A DNA stretch of 64,000 nt from Dehalococcoidia bacterium (GTDB lineage Bacteria; Chloroflexota; Dehalococcoidia; Lucifugimonadales; UBA1123): assembly GCA_021295915.1 (NCBI GenBank), contig JAGWBK010000022.1, forward strand, positions 22,740 to 86,739. The letters are read 5' to 3'. A program made the translations under genes and the position numbers. Below the pieces are notes generated by a model that saw only the letters and a program-made list of their open reading frames with translations, had not been told where the DNA came from and did no database searches. This document shows positions 1 to 16,272 of this stretch, in pieces; positions within the stretch are counted from its first letter, which is position 1, and each line of letters begins with the position of its first letter.

Positions 1-1264
1 TGCCCATGGGTAGCGACATCTTCGCGATAACAGTTGTCAATCCCGACTACCCTGACAAGACCGAAAGCACTCTGCCTGTTGGAGTCGAGGTTGTCGACCT
101 GGATCGAAACGTCCTGTATGGAGACGCCTCAAACTCGTGCCCGGGTATGCATGGCGAAGCGCACAACCACGACGGGGCAGCATTTGGATGCGTTGGCGGG
201 GTGCTGTTCATCGAGTACCACGACGGCGAGTTCGCTGAGATGCGCGAGGAATCTCGCATAGGCTCAATCTGGGGGCATGAGGCCTCACCGCACTTCTTCG
301 GAAGCGCGTCATACAGAGGCGAGGATGGTTTCGTAAACGACGGAATCTGGATGATCGACCCCGAGGGTCGCTCGATGGTACAGGTGATTACACCAGAAAA
401 CGGTAAGCAGAGCGCTGCCTCAGCATTTGGCGCCGACGGTCACGAGTTCTTCGTGCTCACTTATGACGGATTGCTCAATGTTATCGAAGCAGAGACAGGC
501 GAGGTGGAGGACGTTTCCCACGAGCCTCTCGTGGATCCCATAGAGCCGGGCGGCGCCTCACCGTCGTTCGTAGTTGTAGGGGAATTGCTCTACCTGGCAG
601 ATCCGGCCAGTGGTCACGTGATCGAGTACAGCCTGGAAGAATTGGAGACTGAGCGCGAATGGGAAGTCGATGGGTCCCCAAGCCGAATAGCTTTCCTTGG
701 GCTGCCTGGCATCGAGGATGACGATCACCCTGAAGAGGGACACGACCACGGCCCACTCGATCCTCACTTCTGGTTCGATCCGCATCGTGTAGAGCGTGCT
801 GTGAACGAAATCGCCGCCAGGACGGCAGCGACACCTATCTCTCCAACGCCGCGGCGTACGGTGAGGAACTCGAGGAACTGGACCACTGGATCGAGGAGCA
901 GGTCGCTGCGATACCTGAGGACAGGCGTCTGCTGGTCACCAGTCACGACAGCTTCCAGTACTTCGCAGTCGCGTACGGATTTGAGGTCGTCGGGGCCGTC
1001 TTCCCTGGCGGGACCACGGAGACTGAGCCTTCAGCTCAGGAGATGGCAGAACTGATACACGAAATCGAGGAGGCCGGCGCGCCAGCCGTGTTCACTGAGA
1101 CCATCGTGTCCGATACGCTGGCAGCGCGAATCGCCGATGAAGCAGGCGCGTCGATCATCAACGGCCTGTACACTGGCTCTCTCAGCGCCTCGGGTGGCGA
1201 TGCCGACACGTACCTAGAGCTCATGCGCCACAACACCCTGGAAATAGTCGCAGCGCTCAAGTAA
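1..1264 (+). pseudogene. ZnuA/TroA-family (Zn/Mn) ABC transporter substrate-binding protein. The 5' end lies outside the window and the reading frame switches near 815-825.
   Basis: ORF 6..1055 makes sense up to ...DDDHPEEGHDHGPLDPHFWFDPHRVERAVNEIAAR (His-rich loop plus DPHxW motif). The C-lobe (DTYLSNAAAYGEELEELDHWIEEQ..LLVTSHDSFQYFAVAYGFEVVGAVFPG..APAVFTETIVSDTLAARIADEAG) continues in a different frame to the stop at 1262-1264. Confidence 0.75.
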
Positions 1265-3852: not shown

Positions 3853-6800
3853 CTAATCGCCAGCAGGTACGGCAGTTGCCTGGTCTTTCGCGGCGCGCTC
3901 GGCAAGGACTCGCTTGTAGTCTATCGGCATCACCTTGACGAAGCTCGGAAGCATCTCGTCCCAGTTGTCCAGAACGCGCTGGGCATTGGCGCTGCCGGTG
4001 TAGGCGAGGTGGTCTTCGATCTGCCTTCTGACCGCTGCGATGTCGGCGCTCTCTTCAAGGTCCTCCAGCAGGACCATCTCGGTGTTGCAGAGGTCGCCGA
4101 AGCTACCATGCTCATCGAGGACATAGGCTTCGCCTCCGCTCATGCCAGCGGCGAAGTTGCGGCCCGTCGGTCCGAGTACCACGATGCGCCCGCGCGTCAT
4201 GTACTCACACCCGTGGTCTCCGACTCCTTCAACCACGGCCTCAGCGCCCGAATTGCGTACTGCAAACCGTTCGCCAGCAACACCGCGGATGAATGCCTGT
4301 CCGCTAGTCGCGCCGTACAGGGCTACGTTGCCGATGAGGATGTTCTCCTCAGGGACAAACTGGGCCTGCTCGGGCGGTCTGATTGTCACTCGCCCGCCTG
4401 AAAGGCCCTTGCTGAAGTAGTCGTTCGCATCGCCTTCGACGTGGAAGGTCACTCCCTTGGCAAGGAATGCGGCGAAGCTCTGGCCAACCGAGCCCTTGAA
4501 TCCTATGGTGATTGTGTCCTCAGGAAGACCGTCCTCGCCGTACCTGACTGCAATCTCGTAGCTGAGCGTCGTGCCAACGGTCCTGTTTGCGTTGGAGATG
4601 GGCAGTTCAAGTTCGATTGGAGTACCCGACTCGATCGCGTCGTGACACAGTTCGATGAGCCTGTTGTCGAGGGCTTTGTCGAGTCCGTGGTCCTGGGCCT
4701 CGCAGCAGTAGGTTGCGATGTCGTCCGGGACGTCCGGCATCTTCAGAAGGCGCGAGAAGTCGAGTCCCTTTGCCTTCCAGTGCTCGATGGCCTCCCGCGT
4801 GTCGAGGCGGTCCATCCTGCCGACCATCTCGTTGATGGTGCGGAAGCCCATCTCGGCCATGATCTGCCTGAGTTCCTCGGCAACGAAGAAGAAGTAGTTG
4901 ATTACGTGTTCGGGCTGACCCGCGAACCTCTTGCGAAGCTCAGGGTCCTGCGTGGCGATACCCACAGAGCAGGTATTGAGGTGGCACTTTCTGAGCATGA
5001 TGCAGCCCATCGCGATCAGCGGGGCCGTCGCCATGCCAAATTCCTCGGCGCCGAGCAGGCAGGCAATGGCCACATCTCGACCTGTCTTGATCTGCCCATC
5101 GGTTTGGACGATTATCCGGCCGCGCAGGTCATTCTCGACGAGCACCTGCTGAGTCTCAGCGACACCGAGCTCCCATGGCAGGCCAGCGTACTTGATGGAT
5201 GCCTCCGGCGATGCGCCGGTACCGCCGCTGTCGCCGCTGATCAGCACCACGTCGCCGTGGCCCTTTGATACGCCTGCTGCGATCGTGCCGACTCCGGCCT
5301 CCGCGACCAGCTTAACGTGAATCCTAGACTTCGGGTTCGAGTTCTTCAGGTCATGGATGAGCTGTCCGAGGTCCTCGATGGAGTAGATGTCGTGATGAGG
5401 CGGAGGTGAGATCAGCTCGACTCCGGGCGTCGAGTTGCGGACCCAGCCGATATACTCGTCCACCTTATGGCCGGGGAGCTGTCCACCCTCGCCGGGCTTC
5501 GCACCCTGTGCCATCTTGATCTGCAGGTCCGTCGCATTGGCAAGATAGTTTATCGTCACACCAAAGCGGCCGGATGCCACCTGCTTGATTGCGCTGTTGC
5601 GCATGTCGCCGTTGGGATCGGGCTTGTAGCGATGCCAGTCCTCGCCGCCCTCGCCAGTGTTGGAGCGGGCGTCGATGCGGTTCATGGCAATCGCGAGCGC
5701 TTCGTGTGCTTCCCTGCTTATCGAACCCAGCGATATAGCCCCAGTGGCGAACCGCTTGACGATCTCGCTGGCGGACTCGACCTCATCCAGTGAGACCGGC
5801 TCATCTGCGAACTTGAAGTCGAGCAGGCCGCGAATGGTGCACATCTGCTGGGAGTAGTCGTTGGCCCAGTTTGCGAATTCCTTGTATGTTGCCCAACTGT
5901 TGGACTTAGTGGCGTACTGGAGCTTCGCGATGGTGGTGGGGTTCCACATGTGGTACTCGCCATCGCGTCTCCACTGGTAGAAGCCTCCGGCGTCCAGTTG
6001 CATACTACCCGGCGTTACGAGATTAACGTAGGCGAAGGAGTGTCTTGCTCTCGACTCTTCTTCGATCTCCTCAATGCCGATCCCGCCGATCCGGGAGGGT
6101 GTCCATGCGAAGTACTCGTCGATGAATTCTTCGTCCAGTCCGACGGCCTCGAATATCTGGGCGCCCCGGTAGCTCTGAATCGTGGAGATGCCCATCTTGG
6201 CCATGATCTTCACGACGCCTTTATGGGCGCCTTTGATGAAGTTATACTCCGCGGTCTTGTAGTCGATATCGGTAAGGAAGTATTCCTCGCGGATCATGCT
6301 CTCCATAGACTCGAAGACCATGTACGGATTGACCGCACCGGCGCCGTAGCCCACCAGCAGGGCGAGATGCGCGATGTCGCGCGGCTCTCCCGATTCGACG
6401 ACAAGGCCGCAGCGTGTGCGAGAGCCCTCTCGAATCAGGTGGTGGTGAACACCGGCGGTTGCCAGCAGGCTTGGAATGGGCGCATGATCTGAGTCCACGC
6501 CGCGGTCCGAGAGAATTAGAATCGAGTAGCCTTCCTCGATGGCCTGCGACGCCTCGCGGCACAGACTGTCCATGGCGCGCTTGAGTCCGCCGCGCTCTTC
6601 GGGATCGAAAAGCATCGGCAGCGTCTTGGAGCGAATGCCGTTGACGTCGATCTCACGGATCTTCTCGAGGTCCGAGTTAGTGATAAACGGTTCTCTGATG
6701 GTGAGCTGACGGCAGTGTTCAGGCGACTCGTCGAACAGGTTACGCTCGCGCCCGATCATGGCGCGGGTCGAAGTGACCAACTCCTCGCGAATCGAGTCCA

Positions 6801-8412
6801 ACGGCGGATTCGAGACCTGGGCGAAGCGCTGCCTGAAGTAGTGGAACAGCACTGGGGACTGCTCTGACATAACTGCCAGAGGGACGTCCGTGCCCATTGA
6901 GCCAACAGGGTCTGCTCCGGTGAGGGCCATGGGCTCCAGGATTATGCGGAGGTCTTCAAGAGTGTAGCCGAAGGCTGCCTGCCTGCTTTCCAGAGTTTCG
7001 AAGTCCGTACCGTGGACACTGGCTGGTTCCGGCAGTTCTTCAAGCTGAACCATGTTGTCTTCGAGCCATTGGCCGTATTGCCGCCGCGACGAGAGGGCAG
7101 ATTTGAGCTCGGAGTCCTGCACGATCTCGCCGCGCACGGTGTCGAGCATGAACATGCGGCCGGGGTAGATACGCTCTTTGTAGAGGACTTTCTCTACGGG
7201 CACGTCGAGCACGCCAGTTTCGGAGGCCATAACCAGGATATCGTCTGTGGTGACCAGGTAGCGACACGGGCGGAGACCGTTCCGGTCGAGTACAGCGCAG
7301 ATCTTCTCACCGTCTGAGGCGATGATCAGCGCAGGACCATCCCACGGCTCCATCATGGACGAGTGGTACTCGTAGAAGTCCTTCTTGGACTGGTCCATCG
7401 GGATCTGATCGCCCCACGCCTCCGGGATGAGCATCATCATAGAGTGATCCAGGGAGCGACCTGACGCGAGCAGTGTGTCAAGTGCGTTGTCGAGTGTGGC
7501 TGTGTCGCTCTGCAACGGCGTGACAACCGGCGTGATCTTGGCGATGTCACCGCCGAGAATATCGGACTTGAATTTCTTCTCCCTGGCGGTCATCCAGTTG
7601 ATGTTGCCCTGGAGAGTGTTGATCTCGCCGTTGTGGATGATGAACCTGTACGGATGGGCGAGTCTCCACGCGCCCAGAGTGTTGGTTGAAAAGCGTGAGT
7701 GCACGAGCGCGAAGGCAGTTACCATCTCTTCGTCATTGAGATCATGGTAAAAGTCACTGAGCTGGTGGGCCATAATCAGGCCCTTGTACACGACGGTCTT
7801 CGAAGACAGACTGCAGATGTAGAAGTCACTCTTTGCGGAGAGGTCGTCTCCGAGGATAGCTTTCTCAGCCTGTTTGCGGATGACCAGCAGGCGCAGGTCG
7901 AAGTCTCGCCCTGCCCCGGTCACTTCGCCGCGCCCTACCAGGAACTGCCGAATGGTCGGCATCACACGCGCAGACAGAGTACCTATGTTGTCCGGCGAAA
8001 CAGGAACGTCGCGCCAACCCAGGAACCTCTGCCCCTCTTCTGCAACGATGCGCTCGACGGCTGCCTCGCAGTGTACCCGCTCGTCGGGATCGCGAGGGAG
8101 GAAGGTCATGCCGACGCCGTAGTCGCTCTGTTCGGGCACTGCGATTCCTACTTTGCCGAATACCGACACGATGAATTCATGCGGCATCTGGACCATAATG
8201 CCTGCGCCGTCGCCGGTCGCCGCGTCGGCTCCCGAGGCGCCCCTGTGGCCAAGGTTTATCAGGACCTCAAGGCCCTGCTCGATGACGCTATGTGACTTTC
8301 GGCCCTTTACATTGGCGACGAGCCCGACTCCGCAGGCTTCGTGCTCAAACGCCGGACTGTACAGTCCGTCAGTCGAAAGCTGGGGCGTGTAGTCCTTGTT
8401 ATAGCTGCTCAT
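3853..8412 (-). CDS. gltB: Glutamate synthase large subunit
   Basis: 1519 aa. N-terminal [15 protein letters not shown] (Ntn amidotransferase Cys), FMN/3Fe-4S central domain and [12 protein letters not shown]-terminal domain. Confidence 0.97.
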
Positions 8413-8499
8413 CTCAATCTACCTGGTAGTTCTGATGTAGGGCATGTGCGGGTGGTCCGGCTGAGCCTTCACCGGAGGCCGACCTTGCTGTGCAGAGTG

Positions 8500-9873
8500 C
8501 TACAGGGCCGGCAAGTATCGGGCTATTTCGTAGTCTGTCACCTGAGATCTGTATCGATCCCAGTCGATCTTCTTGTTTTCCACGAAGCTATCGAACACCG
8601 AGTCTCCGAGCGCGCTGCGTACAAGCTCGCTCTCTTCAGTAATCCTTAGCGCTTCCAGAAGGTTGGATGGGAGCGACTCGATTCCGTGAGCCTGCCGTTC
8701 TGCATCGCTCATGCCGAAAACGTTGGCAACCGTAGGATCCGGCAGTTCATACTGCTTTTCGATTCCCTCGAGGCCGGCAGCGAGCATGACGCTGAATGCC
8801 AGATAAGGATTGCAGGCGGGGTCAGGAGAGCGAAGCTCCACGCGTCGAGACTCCTCTCGGCCCTGCTTGAAGCTGGGCACGCGAATCAGGTCTGCCCTGT
8901 TGACAGTAGCCCAGGTAACGTGGACCGGAGCCTCGAAGTTGGGAACAAGTCTCTTGTACGAGTTAACCCACTGGTTGGTGACGGCGGTAATCTCGCGGGC
9001 GTGCTTCAGCAGCCCGGCGATGAAGTGCCTGCCGACGGCTGAGAGACGGTCGGGGTCCTCGGCGTCGTAGAACGCGTTGCGTCCCCCTTCGAAGAGAGAC
9101 TGGTGGATATGCATGCCGCTTCCATTGACGGAGGCGATCGGCTTGGGCATAAAGGTCGCGTAGCAGTCGTGACGCTGCGCGATTTCCTTGACTACCAGCT
9201 TGTACGTCATGACCGTATCAGCCATCGTCAGCGCGTCTGTGTGGCGAAGGTCAATTTCATGCTGGCTGGGGGCCACCTCGTGGTGGCTGGCCTCGACGGG
9301 TATGCCGAGCTCTTCGAGCATGAGCACCGTCTCACGGCGCATGTCTGTGCCGAGGTCGGTCGATCCCTGGTCGAAGTAGCCGCCCCTGTCCATGGGCGAG
9401 GGATCAGAATCGTTGTTGAAGTAGAAGTACTCGATCTCCGGGCCCACGTAGTAGGTGTATCCCACCCTTGCGGCCCGCTCGATGTTACGCCTCAACACGA
9501 ACCTGGGGTCGCCCTCGAAAGGCGTCTCATCCGGCGTAACGATGTCGCAGAACACACGGGCGACCGCGTTTTCACGGGGACGCCAGGGCAATATCGCGAA
9601 GGTGTTGGGATCGGGCAACGCGTAGAGGTCTTTCTCCTCGTGGCGGGCGAATCCCTCGACAGCAGAGCCGTCGAATCCCATGCCCCTCGTCAGGGCGGAT
9701 TCGAGCTCTTCGACAGTAATGGCGAACCCTTTCAGGTTTCCCAGAATGTCGGTAAACCAGAGGCGGATGAACTTAACATCGTTGTCCCTGGCCTCTTTGA
9801 GGGCGTATTCAATTGCGAGGTCGCGGTCTACCACAGGAAAGACCTGAAATAATGGTATCGGAGCGGGGAGCAC
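8500..9873 (-). CDS. glnA: Glutamine synthetase type I (short GSI-alpha-like form). The exact start is uncertain.
   Basis: 457 aa ORF with FIRLWFTDILG, FDGSAVEGF, HHEVAPSQHEIDL, KPIASVNGSGMHIHQSL, NSYKRLVP and RVELRSPDPACNPYLAF motifs. It has no NLYDLP adenylylation loop. Confidence 0.93.
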   Translation of the reverse strand: MLPAPIPLFQVFPVVDRDLAIEYALKEARDNDVKFIRLWFTDILGNLKGFAITVEELESALTRGMGFDGSAVEGFARHEEKDLYALPDPNTFAILPWRPRENAVARVFCDIVTPDETPFEGDPRFVLRRNIERAARVGYTYYVGPEIEYFYFNNDSDPSPMDRGGYFDQGSTDLGTDMRRETVLMLEELGIPVEASHHEVAPSQHEIDLRHTDALTMADTVMTYKLVVKEIAQRHDCYATFMPKPIASVNGSGMHIHQSLFEGGRNAFYDAEDPDRLSAVGRHFIAGLLKHAREITAVTNQWVNSYKRLVPNFEAPVHVTWATVNRADLIRVPSFKQGREESRRVELRSPDPACNPYLAFSVMLAAGLEGIEKQYELPDPTVANVFGMSDAERQAHGIESLPSNLLEALRITEESELVRSALGDSVFDSFVENKKIDWDRYRSQVTDYEIARYLPAL

Positions 9874-9961
9874 CCTTCGGAAAATCGCAGATTGAGCCCT
9901 CGTGTGGAGGGGGATACATTAGACACTGGACACACGTCCGCACCGAGGGAAATCATAGCAA

Positions 9962-9990
9962 AATGTAGCACTTTGTGAAAGTTGTGTCAA
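9962..9990 (-). promoter_or_regulatory. Sigma70-type promoter for glnA(alpha)-gltBD
   Basis: On the minus strand, TTGACA (9990-9985), a 17-nt spacer, then TACATT (9967-9962), about 90 nt upstream of the ORF start. Confidence 0.5.
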
Positions 9991-10106
9991 TCTTCGAGCG
10001 GGTGTTCCCCATACCCTGCCAAGACCCGAGGTCTGAGGTCGCCCCGCTTACCAGACAGGTACCCGTTCAACCGAATATCAGGCCCCATGAGGCGACGTAG
10101 ATGCTA

Positions 10107-10135
10107 AAGGGGCGACCCGTTGTGGATCGCCCCTT
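10107..10135 (-). terminator. Hairpin downstream of the GSI-beta gene (weak U-tract)
   Basis: GGGGCGA (10109-10115) pairs with TCGCCCC (10127-10133). Only TTT follows on the minus strand. Confidence 0.35.
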
Positions 10136-10163
10136 AGTTTGCTCGCTTTTGAACGGGACTGGC

Positions 10164-11563
10164 CTAGGCGTCGTAGTAGAGGAAGAACTCGTATGGGTGC
10201 GGGCGCAGGCGAATGGCGTCCACTTCCTCTGTGCGCTTGTAGTCCAGCCAGGTCTCGATCAGGTCGGACGTGAAGACGTCGCCTGCGAGCAGGAACTCGT
10301 AGTCTTCCTCGAGCGCGTTCAGCGACTCTTCAAGACTACCGGGGACCTGCTGCACGTTGGCAGCCTCTTCGGGCGACAGGTCGTAGAGGTCCACGTCCAT
10401 CGGGTCGCCTGGGTCGATCTGGTTGTTGATGCCGTCCAGTCCGGCCAGCAGCATAGCGCTGAAGGCGAGATACGGGTTGGCCGTCGGGTCCGGGCAGCGG
10501 AACTCTACGCGCTTTGCAGGCGGCGTATCGAAGTATGCCGGGATGCGGCAGCACGCGCTGCGGTTGCGGGACGAGTATGCCAGGTTCACCGGAGCCTCGA
10601 AGCCCGGCACCAGCCTGCGATACGAGTTTGTGGTCGGTGCCGCAAACGCCAAGAGCGCCGGAGCGTGCTGGAGAATGCCGCCGATGTAGAACTTCATCGT
10701 GTCGCTCATGTTGGCGTAGCCGTCGCCGTAGAAGATGTTGGTGCCGTCTTTCCAGATGCTCTGGTGGGTGTGCATGCCGGTGCCGTTGTCGTCGAACAGC
10801 GGCTCTTGTGGGCGATGTTCTTGACCAGGTACTTGTAGATCATGATGTTGTCGGCAGTCTTTACGAGCGTGTCATACACGATGTCGATCTCGCCCTGTCC
10901 GGCGGTGGCGACCTCGTGGTGCTGCTTCTCGATCTTCATGCCCCACTTCTGCATTTCAATGATCATCTCGGAGCGGATGTCGCTCTGAGAGTCAACGGGA
11001 GGTGCGGGGAAGTAGCCGCCCTTGTGACGCGGCCTGTAGCCATTGCTGCGGGTAACTCCGTCCAGCATGTACTCATTGCCGGCGTTCCAGATGCCCTCGT
11101 CCGAGTCCACCCTGTGGTGGGACGAGTTGGCGTCCTGGCCAAAGGTGGCGGAGTCGAAGATGAAGAACTCGGCTTCAGGGCCCCAGTAGCTTGTGTCGCC
11201 GATGCCGGTGGTGCCGAGGTGTGCCTCAGCCTTCTGGGCGATGTTCCTGGGGTCGCGGGAGTAGTCACTGCCCGTCAAAGGGTCGCGGATGTTGCAGAGC
11301 AGGCTGAGCGTCTTGATGCCGTAGACAGGGTCCAGGTTTGCGGTGCTGGCGTCCGGGACGATTAGCATGTCGCTCTCGTCGATGGTCTGGAAACCCCGGA
11401 TGCTGGAACCGTCAAAGCCGGTGCCGCTTGCAAAGAGGTCCTCAGTGATCTCGCTGGGCGGTACGCCTACGTGCTGCAAGGTGCCCGGCAGATCGGTGAA
11501 CTTGAGATCGATGATCTCAACTCCCTCGTCTTGAATGAATCTAATGACTTCTTCTGGTGTCAT
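10164..11563 (-). pseudogene. glnA: Glutamine synthetase type I (GSI-beta form), disrupted by an internal deletion/frameshift of roughly 28 nt near 10803
   Basis: ORF 10706..11563 gives the N-terminal half up to ...[14 protein letters not shown] 10164..10775 gives the C-terminal half, whose frame reads [15 protein letters not shown]... just upstream of its listed Met and includes the DLYDLSPEE adenylylation loop. The conserved [10 protein letters not shown] segment between AHK and PLF is missing and the frames differ. Confidence 0.8.
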
Positions 11564-11627
11564 CTTTCCTCTCCTTAGCTTCTCTCGTCATCACAGCAGC
11601 CAGTCTAAAAGGGGCTTTCTTGGCGCC

Positions 11628-11644
11628 TGTGAACATTCCTCACA
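11628..11644. promoter_or_regulatory. Perfect palindrome TGTGA-N7-TCACA upstream of the GSI-beta gene (candidate operator)
   Basis: TGTGAACATTCCTCACA lies about 65-80 nt upstream of the ATG at 11563, immediately after the terminator of the upstream unit. A TAGACT -10-like hexamer lies about 20 nt downstream on the minus strand. Confidence 0.45.
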
Positions 11645-11680
11645 AATTAAAAGTGCCCGACCGGCAATCGGTCAGGCACC
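11644..11680 (-). terminator. Rho-independent terminator of the small-ORF unit
   Basis: The minus strand reads GTGCCTGACCG-attgc-CGGTCGGGCAC followed by TTTTAATTT. Confidence 0.7.
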
Positions 11681-11761
11681 ATTCTAGCAAAGGGGGTTTT
11701 GGTGTGACGATTCCGCCGAATAGTAGGGTTCGCCCACCCCATCGGCGATCCGCGTTAAACG

Positions 11762-11857
11762 TTACTCTCTGTTCTTGCGCAGCTTGCTGGGAAGGACGAC
11801 CCAGAGTCCAAACAGACCTACGAAAGCTACGCCGCCGAGTATTGCTTCGACACCCAT
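11762..11857 (-). CDS. Candidate 31-aa single-TM micropeptide (MGVEAILGGVAFVGLFGLWVVLPSKLRKNRE)
   Basis: ATG..TAA ORF inside a self-contained unit (phased boxes upstream, terminator downstream). It has a hydrophobic helix and a basic tail. The SD is weak (GGAG 13 nt upstream). Confidence 0.3.
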   Translation of the reverse strand: MGVEAILGGVAFVGLFGLWVVLPSKLRKNRE

Positions 11858-11949
11858 TTTCTTGTTCTTGCTCCTGGTTGCTGGTCTTCGGGCTGCCGGT
11901 GTTTTCCCGGCCCCTTGTTTGTTCGACGCTCACATTATTCCAGCGCCAT

Positions 11950-11987
11950 GTTTCGATGATGTTTCGCAGATGTTAACTTTGTGTTAC
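11950..11987 (-). promoter_or_regulatory. Four direct 5-mers at exact 11-bp phasing (GlnR/OmpR-type box array)
   Basis: The minus strand reads GTAAC-n6-TTAAC-n6-GAAAC-n6-GAAAC. On the plus strand the 5-mers GTTTC, GTTTC, GTTAA, GTTAC start at 11950, 11961, 11972 and 11983. The array lies 93-130 nt upstream of the small ORF. Confidence 0.5.
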
Positions 11988-12055
11988 ATGTCACAAAGTC
12001 CCTGGCATGGACAATCAGCGCTCCGACCGGGAGTCAATCTGCCCAGCGAACCGTC

Positions 12056-12120
12056 CTTCGACAGGCTCCCTTCGACAAGCTCAGGGCGAACGGTTGGGCC
12101 TTGCAGTCACGCTCCATATG
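12056..12120 (+). repeat. Intergenic repeat family A (CTTCGACAGGCTCCCTTCGACAAGCTCAGGGCGAACGGTTG...)
   Basis: 41 nt identical to 13801-13841. Partial copies occur at 41606-41628 and 54834-54849. Confidence 0.9.
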
Positions 12121-12133
12121 GAAAGGAAAGTGG

Positions 12134-12182
12134 TAAAAGAAGAGGTCCCGTCCGCTCAAGCCCCCTTGGAGCGGCCGGGACC
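12134..12182 (-). terminator. Rho-independent terminator of amt
   Basis: The minus strand has GGTCCCGGCCGCTCC...GAGCGGACGGGACC as a long stem, followed by TCTTCTTTT. Confidence 0.65.
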
Positions 12183-12228
12183 TACTAACTAAGGGAATAA
12201 AATCGTCTTTAGGCGATCAACCTGGTAT

Positions 12229-13542
12229 CTAGTTTGCGAGTTCCGGGTAGGCAGTCGCGCCGTGCTCGGGCTCGTCCAGTCCGCTCTCTTCCTCTTCTTC
12301 CGAGGCCCTGAGACCCATGGAGAGGTCGATAGCCTTGAATAGGATGAGTCCGATGCCGAGACCCCAGGCCAGGGCAACGATGATTCCGACGATCTGCGGA
12401 CCGAGCTGAGCGGCGTTTCCGGCGATCAGGCCTTCGACGCCGTTGTGGCCGGATGCGAAGATGCCCACTGCCAGCACGCCCCAGGCTCCGCAGATGCCGT
12501 GAACGGCGACTGCACCAACGGGGTCGTCAGCCTTGACAACGTTCTTGATGAACGCGACGCCCGCGATCATGAGGCCACCGGCGATCAGTCCGATTACCAC
12601 AGAAGCCCACGTGTCCACGTATGCACAGCCGGCCGTTATTCCAACGAGTCCCGCCAGTGCGCCGTTGCATGCCATCTCGATGTCGGCCTTGCCCGTGCGC
12701 ACCATAGTGATATAGATGGCCGCGGTAGCTCCGGCGGCGCCGGCCAGAAGCGTGTTGACCGCGTTCAGGCCCAGGGAGCCGGAGTTTACGTTGAATCCGA
12801 ACCATCCGAAGAACAGAATGAACGTGCCGATAACTACGTACGGGAGGTTGTGTCCCTTCAGCTCGGCGCCCTCTCGGAAGCCCTTCCTGGGTCCGACGAT
12901 GATCGCGCCGGCCAGCGCAAGGAATCCACCTATCATGTGGACGACCGCCGAACCGGCGTAGTCGGCCATGCCCAAGGCGGCGAGCCATCCGTCGTCGCTC
13001 CATGCCCAGTGGCCGTAGATCGGATAGACGACTGCTCCCACGATGAAGCTGTACGCGAAGTAGGCGTTGACTTTCGTGCGCTCAGCCATCGCTCCCGCGA
13101 TGATCGTTGCGGCAGTACCGGCGAATACCATCTGGAAGAACCAGCTCACCAGCTGCGAGTCATCGAAGTCTACGAGGAAGAAGCCCTCGAGGCCGATGAA
13201 ACCGGAAGCAGCGCCGCCACCCATCATCAGGGCGAATCCGAATGCCCAGAATCCAAGTGATGCGATACAGAAGTCCAGGAAGGACTTCGTCATATAGTTG
13301 ATGGTGTTCTTGGAGCGAATCAGCCCCGCTCCAAGGAACGCGAATCCGGCCTGCATGAAGAAGACCAGCGCAGCGGCGACGACTGTGATGAGGTTTTCAA
13401 CCTTCGAGTCGACGTCATCTATGCTCATATCCTGTGCATAGGCTGTCCCTATCGTGCCGAGGAATATCCCCACCCCCAGCAACGCCAGCATTACAAGCCG
13501 GAGCTTAAACGGCGTTAAACCTAAAACTCCTGTGTTGAACAA
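12229..13542 (-). CDS. amt: Ammonium transporter (Amt family)
   Basis: 437 aa, multi-TM, with FMQAGFAFLGAG, AGSAVVHMIGG, FGWFGFN and VHGICGAWGVL motifs. TTG start 8 nt after GAGGAGG. Confidence 0.95.
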   Translation of the reverse strand: MFNTGVLGLTPFKLRLVMLALLGVGIFLGTIGTAYAQDMSIDDVDSKVENLITVVAAALVFFMQAGFAFLGAGLIRSKNTINYMTKSFLDFCIASLGFWAFGFALMMGGGAASGFIGLEGFFLVDFDDSQLVSWFFQMVFAGTAATIIAGAMAERTKVNAYFAYSFIVGAVVYPIYGHWAWSDDGWLAALGMADYAGSAVVHMIGGFLALAGAIIVGPRKGFREGAELKGHNLPYVVIGTFILFFGWFGFNVNSGSLGLNAVNTLLAGAAGATAAIYITMVRTGKADIEMACNGALAGLVGITAGCAYVDTWASVVIGLIAGGLMIAGVAFIKNVVKADDPVGAVAVHGICGAWGVLAVGIFASGHNGVEGLIAGNAAQLGPQIVGIIVALAWGLGIGLILFKAIDLSMGLRASEEEEESGLDEPEHGATAYPELAN

Positions 13543-13628
13543 TTTATTTACCTCCTCATGAAGACGGGGGCCTATAACCTTCGACTAGAGAGCGTAGGCT
13601 ATGGGTGTTTCCAAACCTTTTCTCCGAT

Positions 13629-13666
13629 GTAACATTTTTGTTGCGTTAATGTTGCAGAAGTGTTAA
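13629..13666 (-). promoter_or_regulatory. Second array of four 5-mers at exact 11-bp phasing, upstream of amt
   Basis: The minus strand reads TTAAC-n6-GCAAC-n6-GCAAC-n6-GTTAC. On the plus strand GTAAC, GTTGC, GTTGC, GTTAA start at 13629, 13640, 13651 and 13662. The array lies 87-124 nt upstream of the amt start. Confidence 0.5.
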
Positions 13667-13800
13667 CTGTCGCCTCGTGACATTCCGATCTGACCGTCCC
13701 GCAGAAGGCAACGCCAGTTCTGTCGAGGCGCCGCATGACGAGCTGTGTCACGCGCCAGGGACCTGTTCCGGATTGGTGGGCAGTTCAAGAGGCGAACGCA

Positions 13801-13870
13801 CTTCGACAGGCTCCCTTCGACAAGCTCAGGGCGAACGGTTGCGGGCAAGATGCCCACGCTCCAAATACGG
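13801..13870 (+). repeat. Repeat family A fused to family B (GCGGGCAAGATGCCC hairpin)
   Basis: Same orientation as the copy at 12056. The B part recurs at 54850-54885 and, in diverged form, at 18766-18926. Confidence 0.9.
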
Positions 13871-13977
13871 GTGCCTACTACTCTGGGAGAGAGTCCCGCG
13901 GCAAATCCTGCCTTGTGCAGGGGCAAGAGATGGGAGAGTATTGGGTTCAGAAAACTACCTTTAAGGAGGCGGCCAAA

Positions 13978-14792
13978 GTGGATATGGGACTTACCGACAA
14001 GCTCGCGCTGGTGGCCGGCGGCAGCCGGGGCATCGGCAAGGCGATCGCACTCGACCTCGCCCGCGAAGGCGCGGACGTGGCGATAGCAGCGCGCAACGCC
14101 GAGCAACTGGAGCGTACAGCTGCTGAAATAGAAGACCAGACGGGTAGACGGGCCATTCCGCTGGTCTTCGACGCGACCAGCACTGAGCAGTCAACGAATA
14201 TGGTCAACGATGCCGCTGCGCAACTCGGTGGTCTTCACATTCTCGTAAACAGCGCGTCGCTGCCGGGTGGGTCGCCCTCGGCGACTGGGCCGGTGGAGAC
14301 CGTGGACGAGGAAGACCTGCTGAGAGACTTCGACGTCAAGTATGTCGGCGCGTTGCGCTGCGCCAAGGCGGCCCCCACATCAAGGAGCAGGGCTGGGGCC
14401 GGATCATCAACATCAGCGGCACTAACGCACGGAGGGCTGGCAACCTGAGCGGCGGTGCACGAAATACGTCCATGGTGCACATGACCAAGACGCTTGCACT
14501 TCAGCTTGGGCCGTTTGGCATTACGGTCAACTGCATCCATCCTGGAACGACGCGCACGGAGCGAACTCCGGGCATGTTGGAGGCGCGTGCCAAGGAGCTT
14601 GGCATCACGGCCGAGGAAGTGGAGCAGAGAGATTTCGCTACTGGATCCCCGGGAAGCAACGCTATCGGAAGAATGGTGGACGCAGACGAGGTCGCCTACG
14701 TGACCACCTTCCTAGCTTCTGACAAGGCGTGGGCTATCTCAGGCGAGCTTATCGTTGCGACCGGAGGAGCTGGGAGCTTCGTCTACTACTAG
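13978..14792 (+). pseudogene. SDR-family oxidoreductase with the frame broken at a C5 run (14372-14376)
   Basis: LALVAGGSRGIGKAIALDLAREGADVAIAARN...VKYVGALRCAKAAP in one frame, then HIKEQGWGRIINISG...MVHMTKTLALQLGPFGITVNCIHPG in the next. One extra C would restore a normal SDR. AAGGAGG lies 8 nt before GTG 13978. Confidence 0.75.
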
Positions 14793-15034
14793 GACTCGTC
14801 GAAGTGCACCAGGCATGACCAGAAGCTTCGAGAATCACTGGATTGTCGTGCGGCCCGCCGCGACGGGTGGATTCCGGCCTACGCCGGAATGACGGTTGCA
14901 GGATTAGGACTCGTCAAAGTGCACCAGGTATGACCAGAAGCTTCGAGAATCACGGGATTGCCGTGCGGCCCGCCGCGACGGGTGGATTCCGGCTTTCGCC
15001 GGAATGACGGTTGCAGGATTAGGACTCGTCGAAG
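14791..15034. repeat. 115-bp tandem duplication (2 full copies plus a 14-nt seed inside the pentapeptide gene's 3' end)
   Basis: Units start at 14791, 14906 and 15021 and are about 94% identical. Each unit carries AGGACTCGTCGAAG (the ..FDES* gene end) and a family C hairpin ATTCCGGC-n4-GCCGGAAT. Confidence 0.9.
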
Positions 15035-15762
15035 ACGACTATTCCAAATCCGTCGAAGACCAGGGTGTTGACCTGAGCGGGCAGCATGATCGCGCCGTTC
15101 AGCCTGGCGCGTACGAGGTGGGAACCTGATATCACGGCGCCTCTGAGGTCAGCACCGTCGAACTTCGTTTGATCGTCGACGAACACGCCCGTGAGATGAC
15201 AGTCTACGAATACGGCATCGGTGAAGTCGCAACCACCCAGATCGGCCTCTGTGAAGTTGATCGACTCAAGCTTCTGACCCTTGAAGCTGTGGCCTCGCAG
15301 GGACGCCAGGCTGAAGTCGGTGCGCTCGATCTTGACGCCGTCCAGCCTCGCGCTGGCCAGGTCCACGCCCCTCAGTCGTGACCCAGTCAGGTCGACTCCG
15401 AAGAGGTTGGCTTCGAACATGTCGGCGCCCGAAAGGTCCGAGTCGGTGATCCTGGACAGGTTCAACTGCGCACCTCTGAGCCTGGCCGACGTCAGGTTGC
15501 TTCCTGTTATCTCGGCTTCGTGAGCCTCGATGCGCTCCAGTATTGCGCTCTCGGCCACGGAGTTGGTCAGACGCATCCCAGGGCAGATGAGGTTCGTGAG
15601 GTCCGCCCGGATAAGAGTACAGTTGTCCACCAGGAGCGAGTCGGTCTCGATGTTCCGAAAGTCCGCGCCGTCGAAGTTGCACTCTTTGAATTCGGCAACG
15701 TCATCGAGCATGGCGTAGAAGGCGTCGCCGTCGGTTATGGTGAGGTTTTCGTAGGTCGTCAT
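15019..15762 (-). CDS. Pentapeptide-repeat protein
   Basis: 247 aa with runs of A(D/N)LxG-type pentapeptides (ADLTN, ARLRGAQLNLSRITDSDLSGADMFEANLFGVDLTGSRLRGVDLASARLDG). Confidence 0.9.
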   Translation of the reverse strand: MTTYENLTITDGDAFYAMLDDVAEFKECNFDGADFRNIETDSLLVDNCTLIRADLTNLICPGMRLTNSVAESAILERIEAHEAEITGSNLTSARLRGAQLNLSRITDSDLSGADMFEANLFGVDLTGSRLRGVDLASARLDGVKIERTDFSLASLRGHSFKGQKLESINFTEADLGGCDFTDAVFVDCHLTGVFVDDQTKFDGADLRGAVISGSHLVRARLNGAIMLPAQVNTLVFDGFGIVVFDES

Positions 15763-15795
15763 CTGCGAGCTATTCAGGTTGTGAACGCCGGAACG

Positions 15796-16272
15796 TCAAA
15801 ACTGCCAGCGTGTGGCAGTCTTGGGAAAGTCGCTTTCGGTCCAGGCGATCACCTTGGACATTTCCAGAGTGTACACTTCTTCGAGTTCGCCTCCGAAAGA
15901 AATGCCGTACTTGGATTCATATGCGCTGACGATCTCGGCAGTGGCTCGATGAAACAGCATCTGTCCCTCGAGGATTACGACGTGGTCACCGCTCTCCAGA
16001 TGCACGACTGTCCGGGGATCACGCCGTATGTTCCGATCCTTCAGGGAGTCGGGGTCCGAGAAGAAGTGGAACTGGTCATTCAGCCACAACCCCCAGACCG
16101 GGACTACGTGAGGCGGCCCATCCGCGCGATTGGTTGCGATCCAGTAGCTGCGGGCCTCCGACATCTGCTCAACGACCCACGTCCACTCAACCGGCTCGAA
16201 ACCATACTGTGGATCGCCCACTCCGTAGCCTTCCGGCATGTGCGGGCGGTCTCTCTGTGAATTTGACTCCAA
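15796..16272 (-). CDS. Pyridoxamine 5'-phosphate oxidase (PPOX) family protein
   Basis: 158 aa with SYWIATNRADGPPHVVPVWGLWLNDQFHFFSD...RDPRTVVHLESGDHVVILEG, typical of the split-barrel FMN/F420-binding family. Confidence 0.75.
   Translation of the reverse strand: MESNSQRDRPHMPEGYGVGDPQYGFEPVEWTWVVEQMSEARSYWIATNRADGPPHVVPVWGLWLNDQFHFFSDPDSLKDRNIRRDPRTVVHLESGDHVVILEGQMLFHRATAEIVSAYESKYGISFGGELEEVYTLEMSKVIAWTESDFPKTATRWQF

Follow-up and report, generated by a model that had tools for sequence, protein, structure and literature searches.

The window, by which we mean the whole 64,000-nucleotide stretch of Dehalococcoidia DNA that was analyzed, carries on its minus strand amt (13542-12229), a REP-like repeat, a set of direct-repeat boxes that we call array 1, an ORF of 31 amino acids (11857-11762), a stem-loop (11680-11652), a first copy of glnA in two ORFs, a second glnA, and gltB, in that order. 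A further array of boxes, array 2, lies upstream of amt. The product of amt (12229-13542, minus strand) is an ammonium transporter of 437 aa (Pfam PF00909, E = 2.7e-122) that starts at a TTG after AGGAGG. The amt unit is flanked by identical copies of a REP-like element (…TTCGACAAGCTCAGGGCGAACGG…) at 12056-12096 and 13801-13841, and more copies, at the break that follows contig C27 and at other genomic sites, probably fragment the assembly.

The first gene past array 1 is the small ORF (31 aa, MGVEAILGGVAFVGLFGLWVVLPSKLRKNRE; 11762-11857, minus strand), which encodes one hydrophobic helix followed by a basic tail and has no match in Pfam or NCBIfam. In the genus, 21/21 genomes retain the peptide at 31-33 aa, always with the array upstream, and it also appears downstream of arrays at two more distant loci (L037 and L046). 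Because of this conservation in the genus and at two further loci, we consider the ORF a real gene, whose small product could partner Amt or glutamine synthetase in the membrane. Between the small ORF and glnA is a stem-loop of 12 pairs followed by TTTAATTT (11652-11680, minus strand), and its stem is maintained by compensatory changes across the genus. Immediately upstream of it we found a conserved extended -10, TGnTAGAAT (11681-11689, minus strand), from which glnA may be transcribed on its own, and the hairpin may act both as the terminator of the small ORF and as the 5′ end of the glnA transcript. Since a stem-loop and a separate extended -10 precede glnA, its control by array 1 is uncertain; in other families (G031 and G032), an array is found directly upstream of glnA.

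The first glnA copy, encoding glutamine synthetase (10164-11563, minus strand), is composed of ORFs 10706-11563 and 10164-10775, with Pfam matches to Gln-synt_N and Gln-synt_C on both pieces; the ORFs overlap at 10706-10775, reflecting either a frameshift or an assembly error. Upstream of glnA there is also a TGTGA-N7-TCACA palindrome (11628-11644), which no genome other than this one and G006, its nearest relative, retains and which is for that reason probably not a conserved operator. An Rfam scan of positions 8000-16000 (E <= 1) returned no RNA family, ruling out a known riboswitch or leader at array 1.

Phased boxes and promoter geometry

Read directly from the plus strand, positions 11950-11987 are GTTTC GATGAT GTTTC GCAGAT GTTAA CTTTGT GTTAC, which on the minus strand, in gene orientation, become GTAAC-n6-TTAAC-n6-GAAAC-n6-GAAAC, exactly as written in an earlier interpretation made from the letters alone (the sequence-only reading). 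The distance of 93-130 nt upstream of the small ORF given there also holds, as the ATG of the ORF is at 11857. The 11-bp phasing that it reported is exact, but its 5-mer unit proved too short. In the plus strand, the base preceding the box G is T in 8/8 boxes of arrays 1 and 2, and therefore the real unit in gene orientation is GnAACA, within a conserved stretch of nGnAACA. Array 1 thus spans 11949-11987 on the minus strand as four direct-repeat boxes in 11-bp phase, GTAACA (11987-11982), TTAACA (11976-11971), GAAACA (11965-11960), and GAAACA (11954-11949), which we propose as putative binding sites for four head-to-tail protomers of a GlnR-like protein.

When one mismatch was allowed, TGTW-n7 x4 matched twice in the window, while shuffled windows gave a mean of 0.01 matches and 0/100 shuffles reached two. 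On both strands of the 3.16-Mb genome, the exact four-box pattern was found only at array 1 and at the amt array. The exact pattern is also present in 24/24 other genomes of the genus, most of them with two arrays 1.6-2.4 kb apart, and these 24 genomes gave 44 matches to the pattern vs 4 to a reversed control. In an alignment of array 1 from 21 genus genomes, the boxes were retained in 21/21; the flank upstream shows no conservation, which sets in abruptly with the first box, and spacers and flanks drift. The genus consensus from these 21 genomes is GTWACACAAA.TTAACAT.TG.GTAACA.C..CGAAACA, followed by ~9 variable bases and an invariant ATAATG. Across 164 non-redundant boxes, we obtained the consensus G-T-A-A-C-A, with A as the fourth base in 164/164 and counts of G 115, T 99, A 136, A 164, and C 139 for the first five positions. 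The 11-bp phase, with its 6-nt spacers, is exact at arrays 1 and 2 and at the CBS-pair and nasA promoters described below, each of which has four or six sites.

Two further features of array 1 put forward by the sequence-only reading stood in part. The a-b-a-b arrangement of sites fits the genus consensus (GTWAC, TTAAC, GTAAC, GAAAC), although the copy of array 1 in this genome fits it less well. The palindrome CTTTGTG-n8-CACAAAG is indeed present at 11977-11998, overlapping the distal box, but only some genomes of the genus conserve it, as it is retained in the closest genomes and missing from L115/L117-type genomes and L132; therefore, it is not a required part of the element.

Upstream of amt, a second array with the phasing of array 1 had been described at 13629-13666 with four boxes. 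The phasing is as described, but amt has six boxes rather than four, so that array 2 extends over 13607-13666 (minus strand). In gene orientation, these are TTAAC (13666-13662), GCAAC (13655-13651), and GCAAC (13644-13640) on the distal side, and GTTAC (13633-13629), GAAAA (13622-13618), and GAAAC (13611-13607) on the proximal side. The four boxes of 13629-13666 are the distal ones, their distance to the promoter exceeding that of the array 1 boxes by 22 bp, and the two additional proximal boxes, at 13607-13611 and 13618-13622, are weaker. All six are conserved in 16 genus genomes. The footprint in the genus reads TTWACA, KYAACA, CAACA, GTTACA, GAAAAG, and GGWAAYA, followed by 10 nt, TAYNNT, and then AGGAGG and the TTG start; both the Shine-Dalgarno sequence and the start codon are conserved in the genus.

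At all four arrays found in the genome, a TAnnnT hexamer, the predicted -10, comes after the last 5-mer with 10 nt in between. For array 1 the predicted -10 is AATAAT (11934-11939, minus strand), 10 nt past the last box, where ATAATG is invariant in the genus alignment; for amt it is TACGCT (13591-13596, minus strand), likewise 10 nt past the last box and within the conserved TAYNNT. No sigma-70-type promoter with a -35 was found at either array in the window. With the hexamer placed at -12 to -7, as predicted, the boxes of array 1 would fall at about -27, -38, -49, and -60. In the activation complex of Mycobacterium tuberculosis GlnR, four protomers (a1-b1-a2-b2) are arranged head to tail on a scaffold covering -64 to +13, with the b2 site downstream of the -35 element (PMC10235972), and the geometry of array 1, measured from its predicted -10, is the same. 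Just past this -10, the sequence TGAAACAT.AGAACAAAC (11900-11933, minus strand) is conserved across the genus; it includes a box-like GAAACA and a CAAAC, the latter in phase with array 1.

Candidate regulon and its distribution

We built a PWM from the boxes and scanned the whole genome for four-box arrays, as the sequence-only reading had suggested. Only four arrays stood out, three of them at amt, at the small ORF and glnA, and at nasA, which bears out the expected association with nitrogen genes. Array 1 scored 42.0, the amt array 37.8 (with further scores of 28.2 and 27.9), and an array at C90:4335-4375 34.1, vs a control maximum of 19.2; the next match, at 20.7, was a weak six-box array at C25:31937-31999. 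On contig C90, 10 nt separate the array from TATAGT, the gene downstream encodes a stand-alone CBS-pair protein (ORF 4496-4888), and the array is conserved before the same gene in at least four other species of the genus (G001, G002, G005, and G017). The array on contig C25, followed by 10 nt and TACCCT, is directly upstream of the gene for a 705-aa molybdopterin oxidoreductase (ORF 31891-29774) that carries an N-terminal Fe4S4 cysteine motif and that we read, from its sequence, as an assimilatory nitrate reductase (nasA). This array appears as a clean footprint in 7/7 genomes having the gene. The 5′ leader of the nitrate reductase gene also contains a conserved hairpin, CTGATAC...GTATCAG, which ends at the start codon and shows compensatory changes between species.

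A limited literature search found no mention of the CBS-pair gene or the 31-aa peptide gene as targets of actinobacterial GlnR. A PII gene is present elsewhere in the genome. Three other genomes carry a conserved array of TTAACA x3 in 11-bp phase, followed by GTAATAATG (L195, L196, and L201; G005:C1:381806, G001:C1:1022901, and G002:C1:393792), with no obvious downstream ORF there and no counterpart in this genome; a small RNA, or a small gene missing from the annotation, may be transcribed from this array.

Arrays of the same type were also found beside amt or the next gene in MAGs of Dehalococcoidia, SAR202, Dehalococcoidales, and unclassified Chloroflexota, whose Amt proteins are down to ~51% identical to the Amt of the window. 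In the same comparison of Amt loci, no arrays were seen at loci of Anaerolinea, Caldilineales, Thermoflexus, or Chloroflexus or at those of other phyla.

A GlnR-like protein in the genus

The sequence-only reading pointed to an orphan OmpR-family regulator as the protein behind the arrays. Such a GlnR-like gene is found in 24/24 congeners (E 1e-40 to 1e-47; partial in G015) but not in the assembly of this genome (G000), in which the best match of a GlnR-like query is the Pho-type regulator. The assembly has only four OmpR-type winged-helix genes, on contigs C14, C92, C29, and C19, and NCBIfam gave no GlnR model among its matches and no name to any of their four proteins. We rejected the C14 gene as a GlnR, as it is RegX3/PhoP-like with its kinase beside pstS, and the genes on C92, C29, and C19, whose common recognition helix is unrelated to that of GlnR. 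Downstream of the C14 regulator, its kinase, and uppP, the pstS promoter has a Pho operator (C14:~640-800, minus strand). The genes at C29:681-3077 and C19:3062-4069 encode fused GAF-PAS-HisKA-HATPase-REC-wHTH proteins of ~800 aa, a type with many copies in the genus, whose recognition helix differs from those of other OmpR proteins.

Synteny between G006, the nearest complete genome, and contig C27 of this assembly stops 8 bp before the contig end, and the GlnR-like gene of G006 is ~650 bp beyond this break. The end of C27 has a 98.8%-identical counterpart in a metagenome scaffold, where a tRNA gene and a REP-like element come next and then a GlnR-like gene; measured on this scaffold, C27 stops ~600 bp ahead of the gene. 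The ~8 kb that follow in G006, including genes for aspartate kinase and homoserine kinase, are also missing from this assembly. Given where C27 ends and the missing ~8-kb stretch, we take the absence of the regulator as an assembly gap, and we infer from the synteny and the contig end that the GlnR-like gene belongs to this genome and was lost at the end of the contig.

In four relatives, the GlnR-like gene adjoins an amt or glnA with an array (G029, G032, L056, and L052), the array being <= 2 kb from the gene in G029 and G032. At L056, an OmpR-family gene with a degenerate receiver is directly upstream of the array and amt, and at L052 such a gene lies between the glutamate synthase genes and three amt genes with a PII gene. 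In G006 and L185 the gene has as neighbors a tRNA gene and the genes for a DUF2442 protein and a class IV aminotransferase, and in G029, L052, and L056 it has amt and glt genes; no histidine kinase gene was found nearby. We also looked for autoregulation and found no array upstream of the GlnR-like gene. Co-occurrence was examined in 16 genomes from other families of the order, with the gene called at E <= 1e-40. All of those with the gene (8/8) also carry plausible arrays, and four genomes have neither. Two AT-rich genomes gave only noise, the sole match of G026 was a Pho box at pstS, and one of the 16 is an exception, G031, with arrays at glnA and no detectable GlnR-like gene. The database names of the homologues are generic, e.g., "response regulator transcription factor."

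Several features of the protein argue for its assignment to GlnR. Among solved structures, the three best matches of the G006 protein are 8HIG, 8HIH, and 8HML, all of them GlnR (E 6e-31 to 1.6e-28). 8HIH shows GlnR of M. tuberculosis on RNA polymerase and 8HML shows Saccharopolyspora erythraea GlnR's DNA-binding domain on DNA (PMC10235972); the Foldseek title of 8HIG describes a co-crystal of the GlnR DNA-binding domain. In the structure of this domain with DNA, the GTAAC bases are contacted by R186, V190, R193, and R194 of S. erythraea GlnR, and these residues, equivalent to R190, V194, R197, and R198 of P0001 (alignment A1), are invariant in 38 Dehalococcoidia homologues. The Pho-type regulator shares R186, V190, and R193 with GlnR and has W at the R194 position. 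The homologues and GlnR also have in common a GGT before the helix, the N of an (R/W)NVGY motif, and a loop with two residues fewer than that of RegX3, VicR, WalR, or MtrA. In a tree of 23 DNA-binding domains with few references, actinobacterial GlnRs and the Dehalococcoidia proteins form a clade with moderate support (88/89), with MtrA outside it. Identity of the DNA-binding domain to GlnR is 51-52%, vs 44% for the Pho-type paralogue, and the best-match relations between the Dehalococcoidia proteins and GlnR hold both ways in the small sets compared.

The C-terminal OmpR-type winged helix (PF00486) was matched in 38/38 homologues (E down to 5.6e-29). The receiver domain is degenerate, as Response_reg (PF00072) matched 1/38, below the cut-off; it has no acidic pair, its conserved Lys is replaced in "VSPP," and it is probably non-phosphorylatable. 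GlnR_1st (PF21695) matched 4/38, also below the cut-off (best E = 0.002). A structure model (pLDDT 85) shows a two-domain OmpR-type protein with a receiver-like fold lacking the first strand, for which Foldseek ranks MtrA, PrrA, RegX3, and PhoP about level with GlnR, so the subfamily is not separated by fold. Taken together, the sequence comparisons make membership of the DNA-binding domain in the GlnR subfamily well supported.

Proposed mechanism, alternatives, and related systems

We consider it probable that a GlnR-like transcription factor uses array 1 as a promoter-proximal operator. The box consensus, the target genes, and the regulator found in congeners agree with one another, and the sequence-only reading of a GlnR-type box array is upheld by them. 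According to this model, the regulator would be an orphan member of the OmpR/PhoB family whose receiver domain is degenerate, and four of its protomers (six at amt) would bind head to tail to GnAACA boxes, one helical turn apart. Placed from the predicted -10, the boxes would span about -60 to -23, with the proximal protomer between the -35 position and the -10 hexamer of a promoter that has no -35 of its own, so that the bound regulator would recruit RNA polymerase, as in the M. tuberculosis GlnR complex. Nitrogen limitation would then turn on a small regulon made up of amt, the gene for the 31-aa membrane peptide, the nitrate reductase gene, and the CBS-pair gene, possibly with glnA behind the peptide gene. 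Physical binding, activation rather than repression, and nitrogen as the signal are what we infer from the sites, their positions, and the genes that follow them.

The same protein could instead be a repressor that occludes the -35 region under nitrogen excess, which we regard as unlikely. The boxes do overlap positions -35 to -23, and RNA polymerase could be blocked by protein bound at these positions; conserved box-like sequence (GAAACAT, GAACAAAC) is also found downstream of the array 1 -10. However, the four promoters have no recognizable -35 and should be weak unaided, the same geometry is that of an activation complex in M. tuberculosis (PMC10235972), and actinobacterial GlnR activates amtB, glnA, and nasA (PMC10704036). 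It is very unlikely that the classical Pho-type two-component regulator (C14:2978-3775) is the main protein on the arrays, even though the pstS promoter of this genome consists of six yTAAC boxes in 11-bp phase followed by 10 nt and TAGAGT, the interval from the kinase gene to pstS in G026 contains GTTAAC x4, the protein shares three of the base-contacting residues with GlnR (R186, V190, and R193), and PhoP and GlnR compete at the glnA and amtB promoters of Streptomyces (PMC3561978). The Pho boxes have C or T as their first base and no A at the end, the pstS array gives no score in the nitrogen-box scan, and the Pho-type protein has W at the position of the G-contacting R194. Moreover, the arrays co-occur and co-localize with the GlnR-like gene and not with the Pho operon. 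Pho-type cross-talk at the arrays is possible.

A CRP/FNR-, NtcA-, or TnrA-like dimer that reads TGTGA-n6-ACACA or CTTTGTG-n8-CACAAAG at the distal end of array 1 would make the 5-mers incidental. A palindrome does exist there (11977-11998) and is retained in the closest genomes, but about half of the genus lacks it while keeping all four boxes, no such palindrome occurs at the amt, nasA, or CBS arrays, and the similar one at 11628-11644 is limited to this genome and G006, making this explanation highly improbable. As for chance, or a degenerate 11-bp tandem repeat without function, true 11-bp tandem repeats do match the pattern elsewhere (e.g., G036:C4:58993), yet only 0.01 matches per window are expected by chance, spacers vary from unit to unit, and the boxes are conserved in 24 species, always before the same genes; uniqueness, conservation, and shuffles together refute this explanation, to which we give almost no credence.

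Returning to activation by a GlnR-like protein, we give about an even chance to the broader proposal that an OmpR-type GlnR regulon is the class-wide nitrogen control of Dehalococcoidia, including SAR202-type ocean bacteria and Dehalococcoidales, with the same code and with the 31-aa peptide and the CBS-pair protein as members. Either of these two proteins could be a missing link in GlnR-type nitrogen sensing or signal transmission. If the proposal is true, one short motif would predict the nitrogen-limitation regulon across a large, mostly uncultured class and would aid in reading metatranscriptomes of SAR202 and related bacteria. A GlnR protein-DNA code common to two phyla would also make its origin, by common descent within Terrabacteria or by transfer, testable, and in so small a regulon the membrane micropeptide and the CBS-pair protein become candidate new parts of nitrogen signaling.

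Other regulators offer partial parallels. Bacillus TnrA and GlnR, of the MerR family, recognize TGTNAN7TNACA, and cyanobacterial NtcA, of the CRP family, recognizes GTAN8TAC, both of which are palindromes bound by dimers. Like the candidate regulator described here, these proteins control amt and glnA by nitrogen status, but their sites are palindromic, unlike the phased direct repeats of this genome. Closer in layout are the pho boxes of Escherichia coli PhoB, 11-bp direct repeats that replace the -35, end ~10 bp before the -10, and are bound head to tail by winged-helix domains. The pstS promoter of this genome shares that layout with the nitrogen arrays, but differs from them in its yTAAC box, the canonical receiver of its regulator, the adjacent kinase, and its other targets. 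In Streptomyces, MtrA and AfsQ1 are described as OmpR-family proteins acting on GTnAC-type repeats at nitrogen genes (PMC10704036, PMC9151340); in contrast to the orphan regulator proposed here, both belong to classical two-component systems and serve as competitors or repressors.

The nearest relative is actinobacterial GlnR with its boxes, known from Streptomyces coelicolor, Mycobacterium smegmatis, M. tuberculosis, S. erythraea, and Amycolatopsis mediterranei. GlnR is described as an actinobacterial regulator (PMC10704036, PMC10235972), and our literature search found no paper linking it with Chloroflexota, Dehalococcoidia, or SAR202 and no study of nitrogen regulation in Dehalococcoidia. 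The S. coelicolor consensus is gTnAc-n6-GaAAc-n6-GtnAC-n6-GAAAc, and the fourth base of actinobacterial boxes, an A, is reported to be irreplaceable (PMC10704036). The arrays described here have the same 5-nt GTnAC/GnAAC sites with an invariant fourth A, the same 6-nt spacers, and usually four sites, and the six sites at amt parallel those described for S. coelicolor amtB, a3-b3, a1-b1, and a2-b2 (PMC5826061). Further likenesses are the predicted placing of the proximal site between -35 and -10, the targets amt, glnA, and nasA, and an orphan regulator with a degenerate receiver and identical base-contacting residues, which has GGTRTVDVH(V/I)RRLR and the N of (R/W)NVGY (R in L052/L056 and W in the genus). 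The differences are that the host belongs to the Chloroflexota (Dehalococcoidia), the box unit is longer by one A (GnAACA), the first strand is missing from the N-terminal domain, which falls below the Pfam threshold for GlnR_1st, no array precedes the regulator gene, and the regulon is very small and includes the 31-aa membrane peptide and the CBS-pair protein. The proposed mechanism and protein-DNA code are those of actinobacteria, and what would be new here is their occurrence in the phylum Chloroflexota and the two unexpected members of the regulon.
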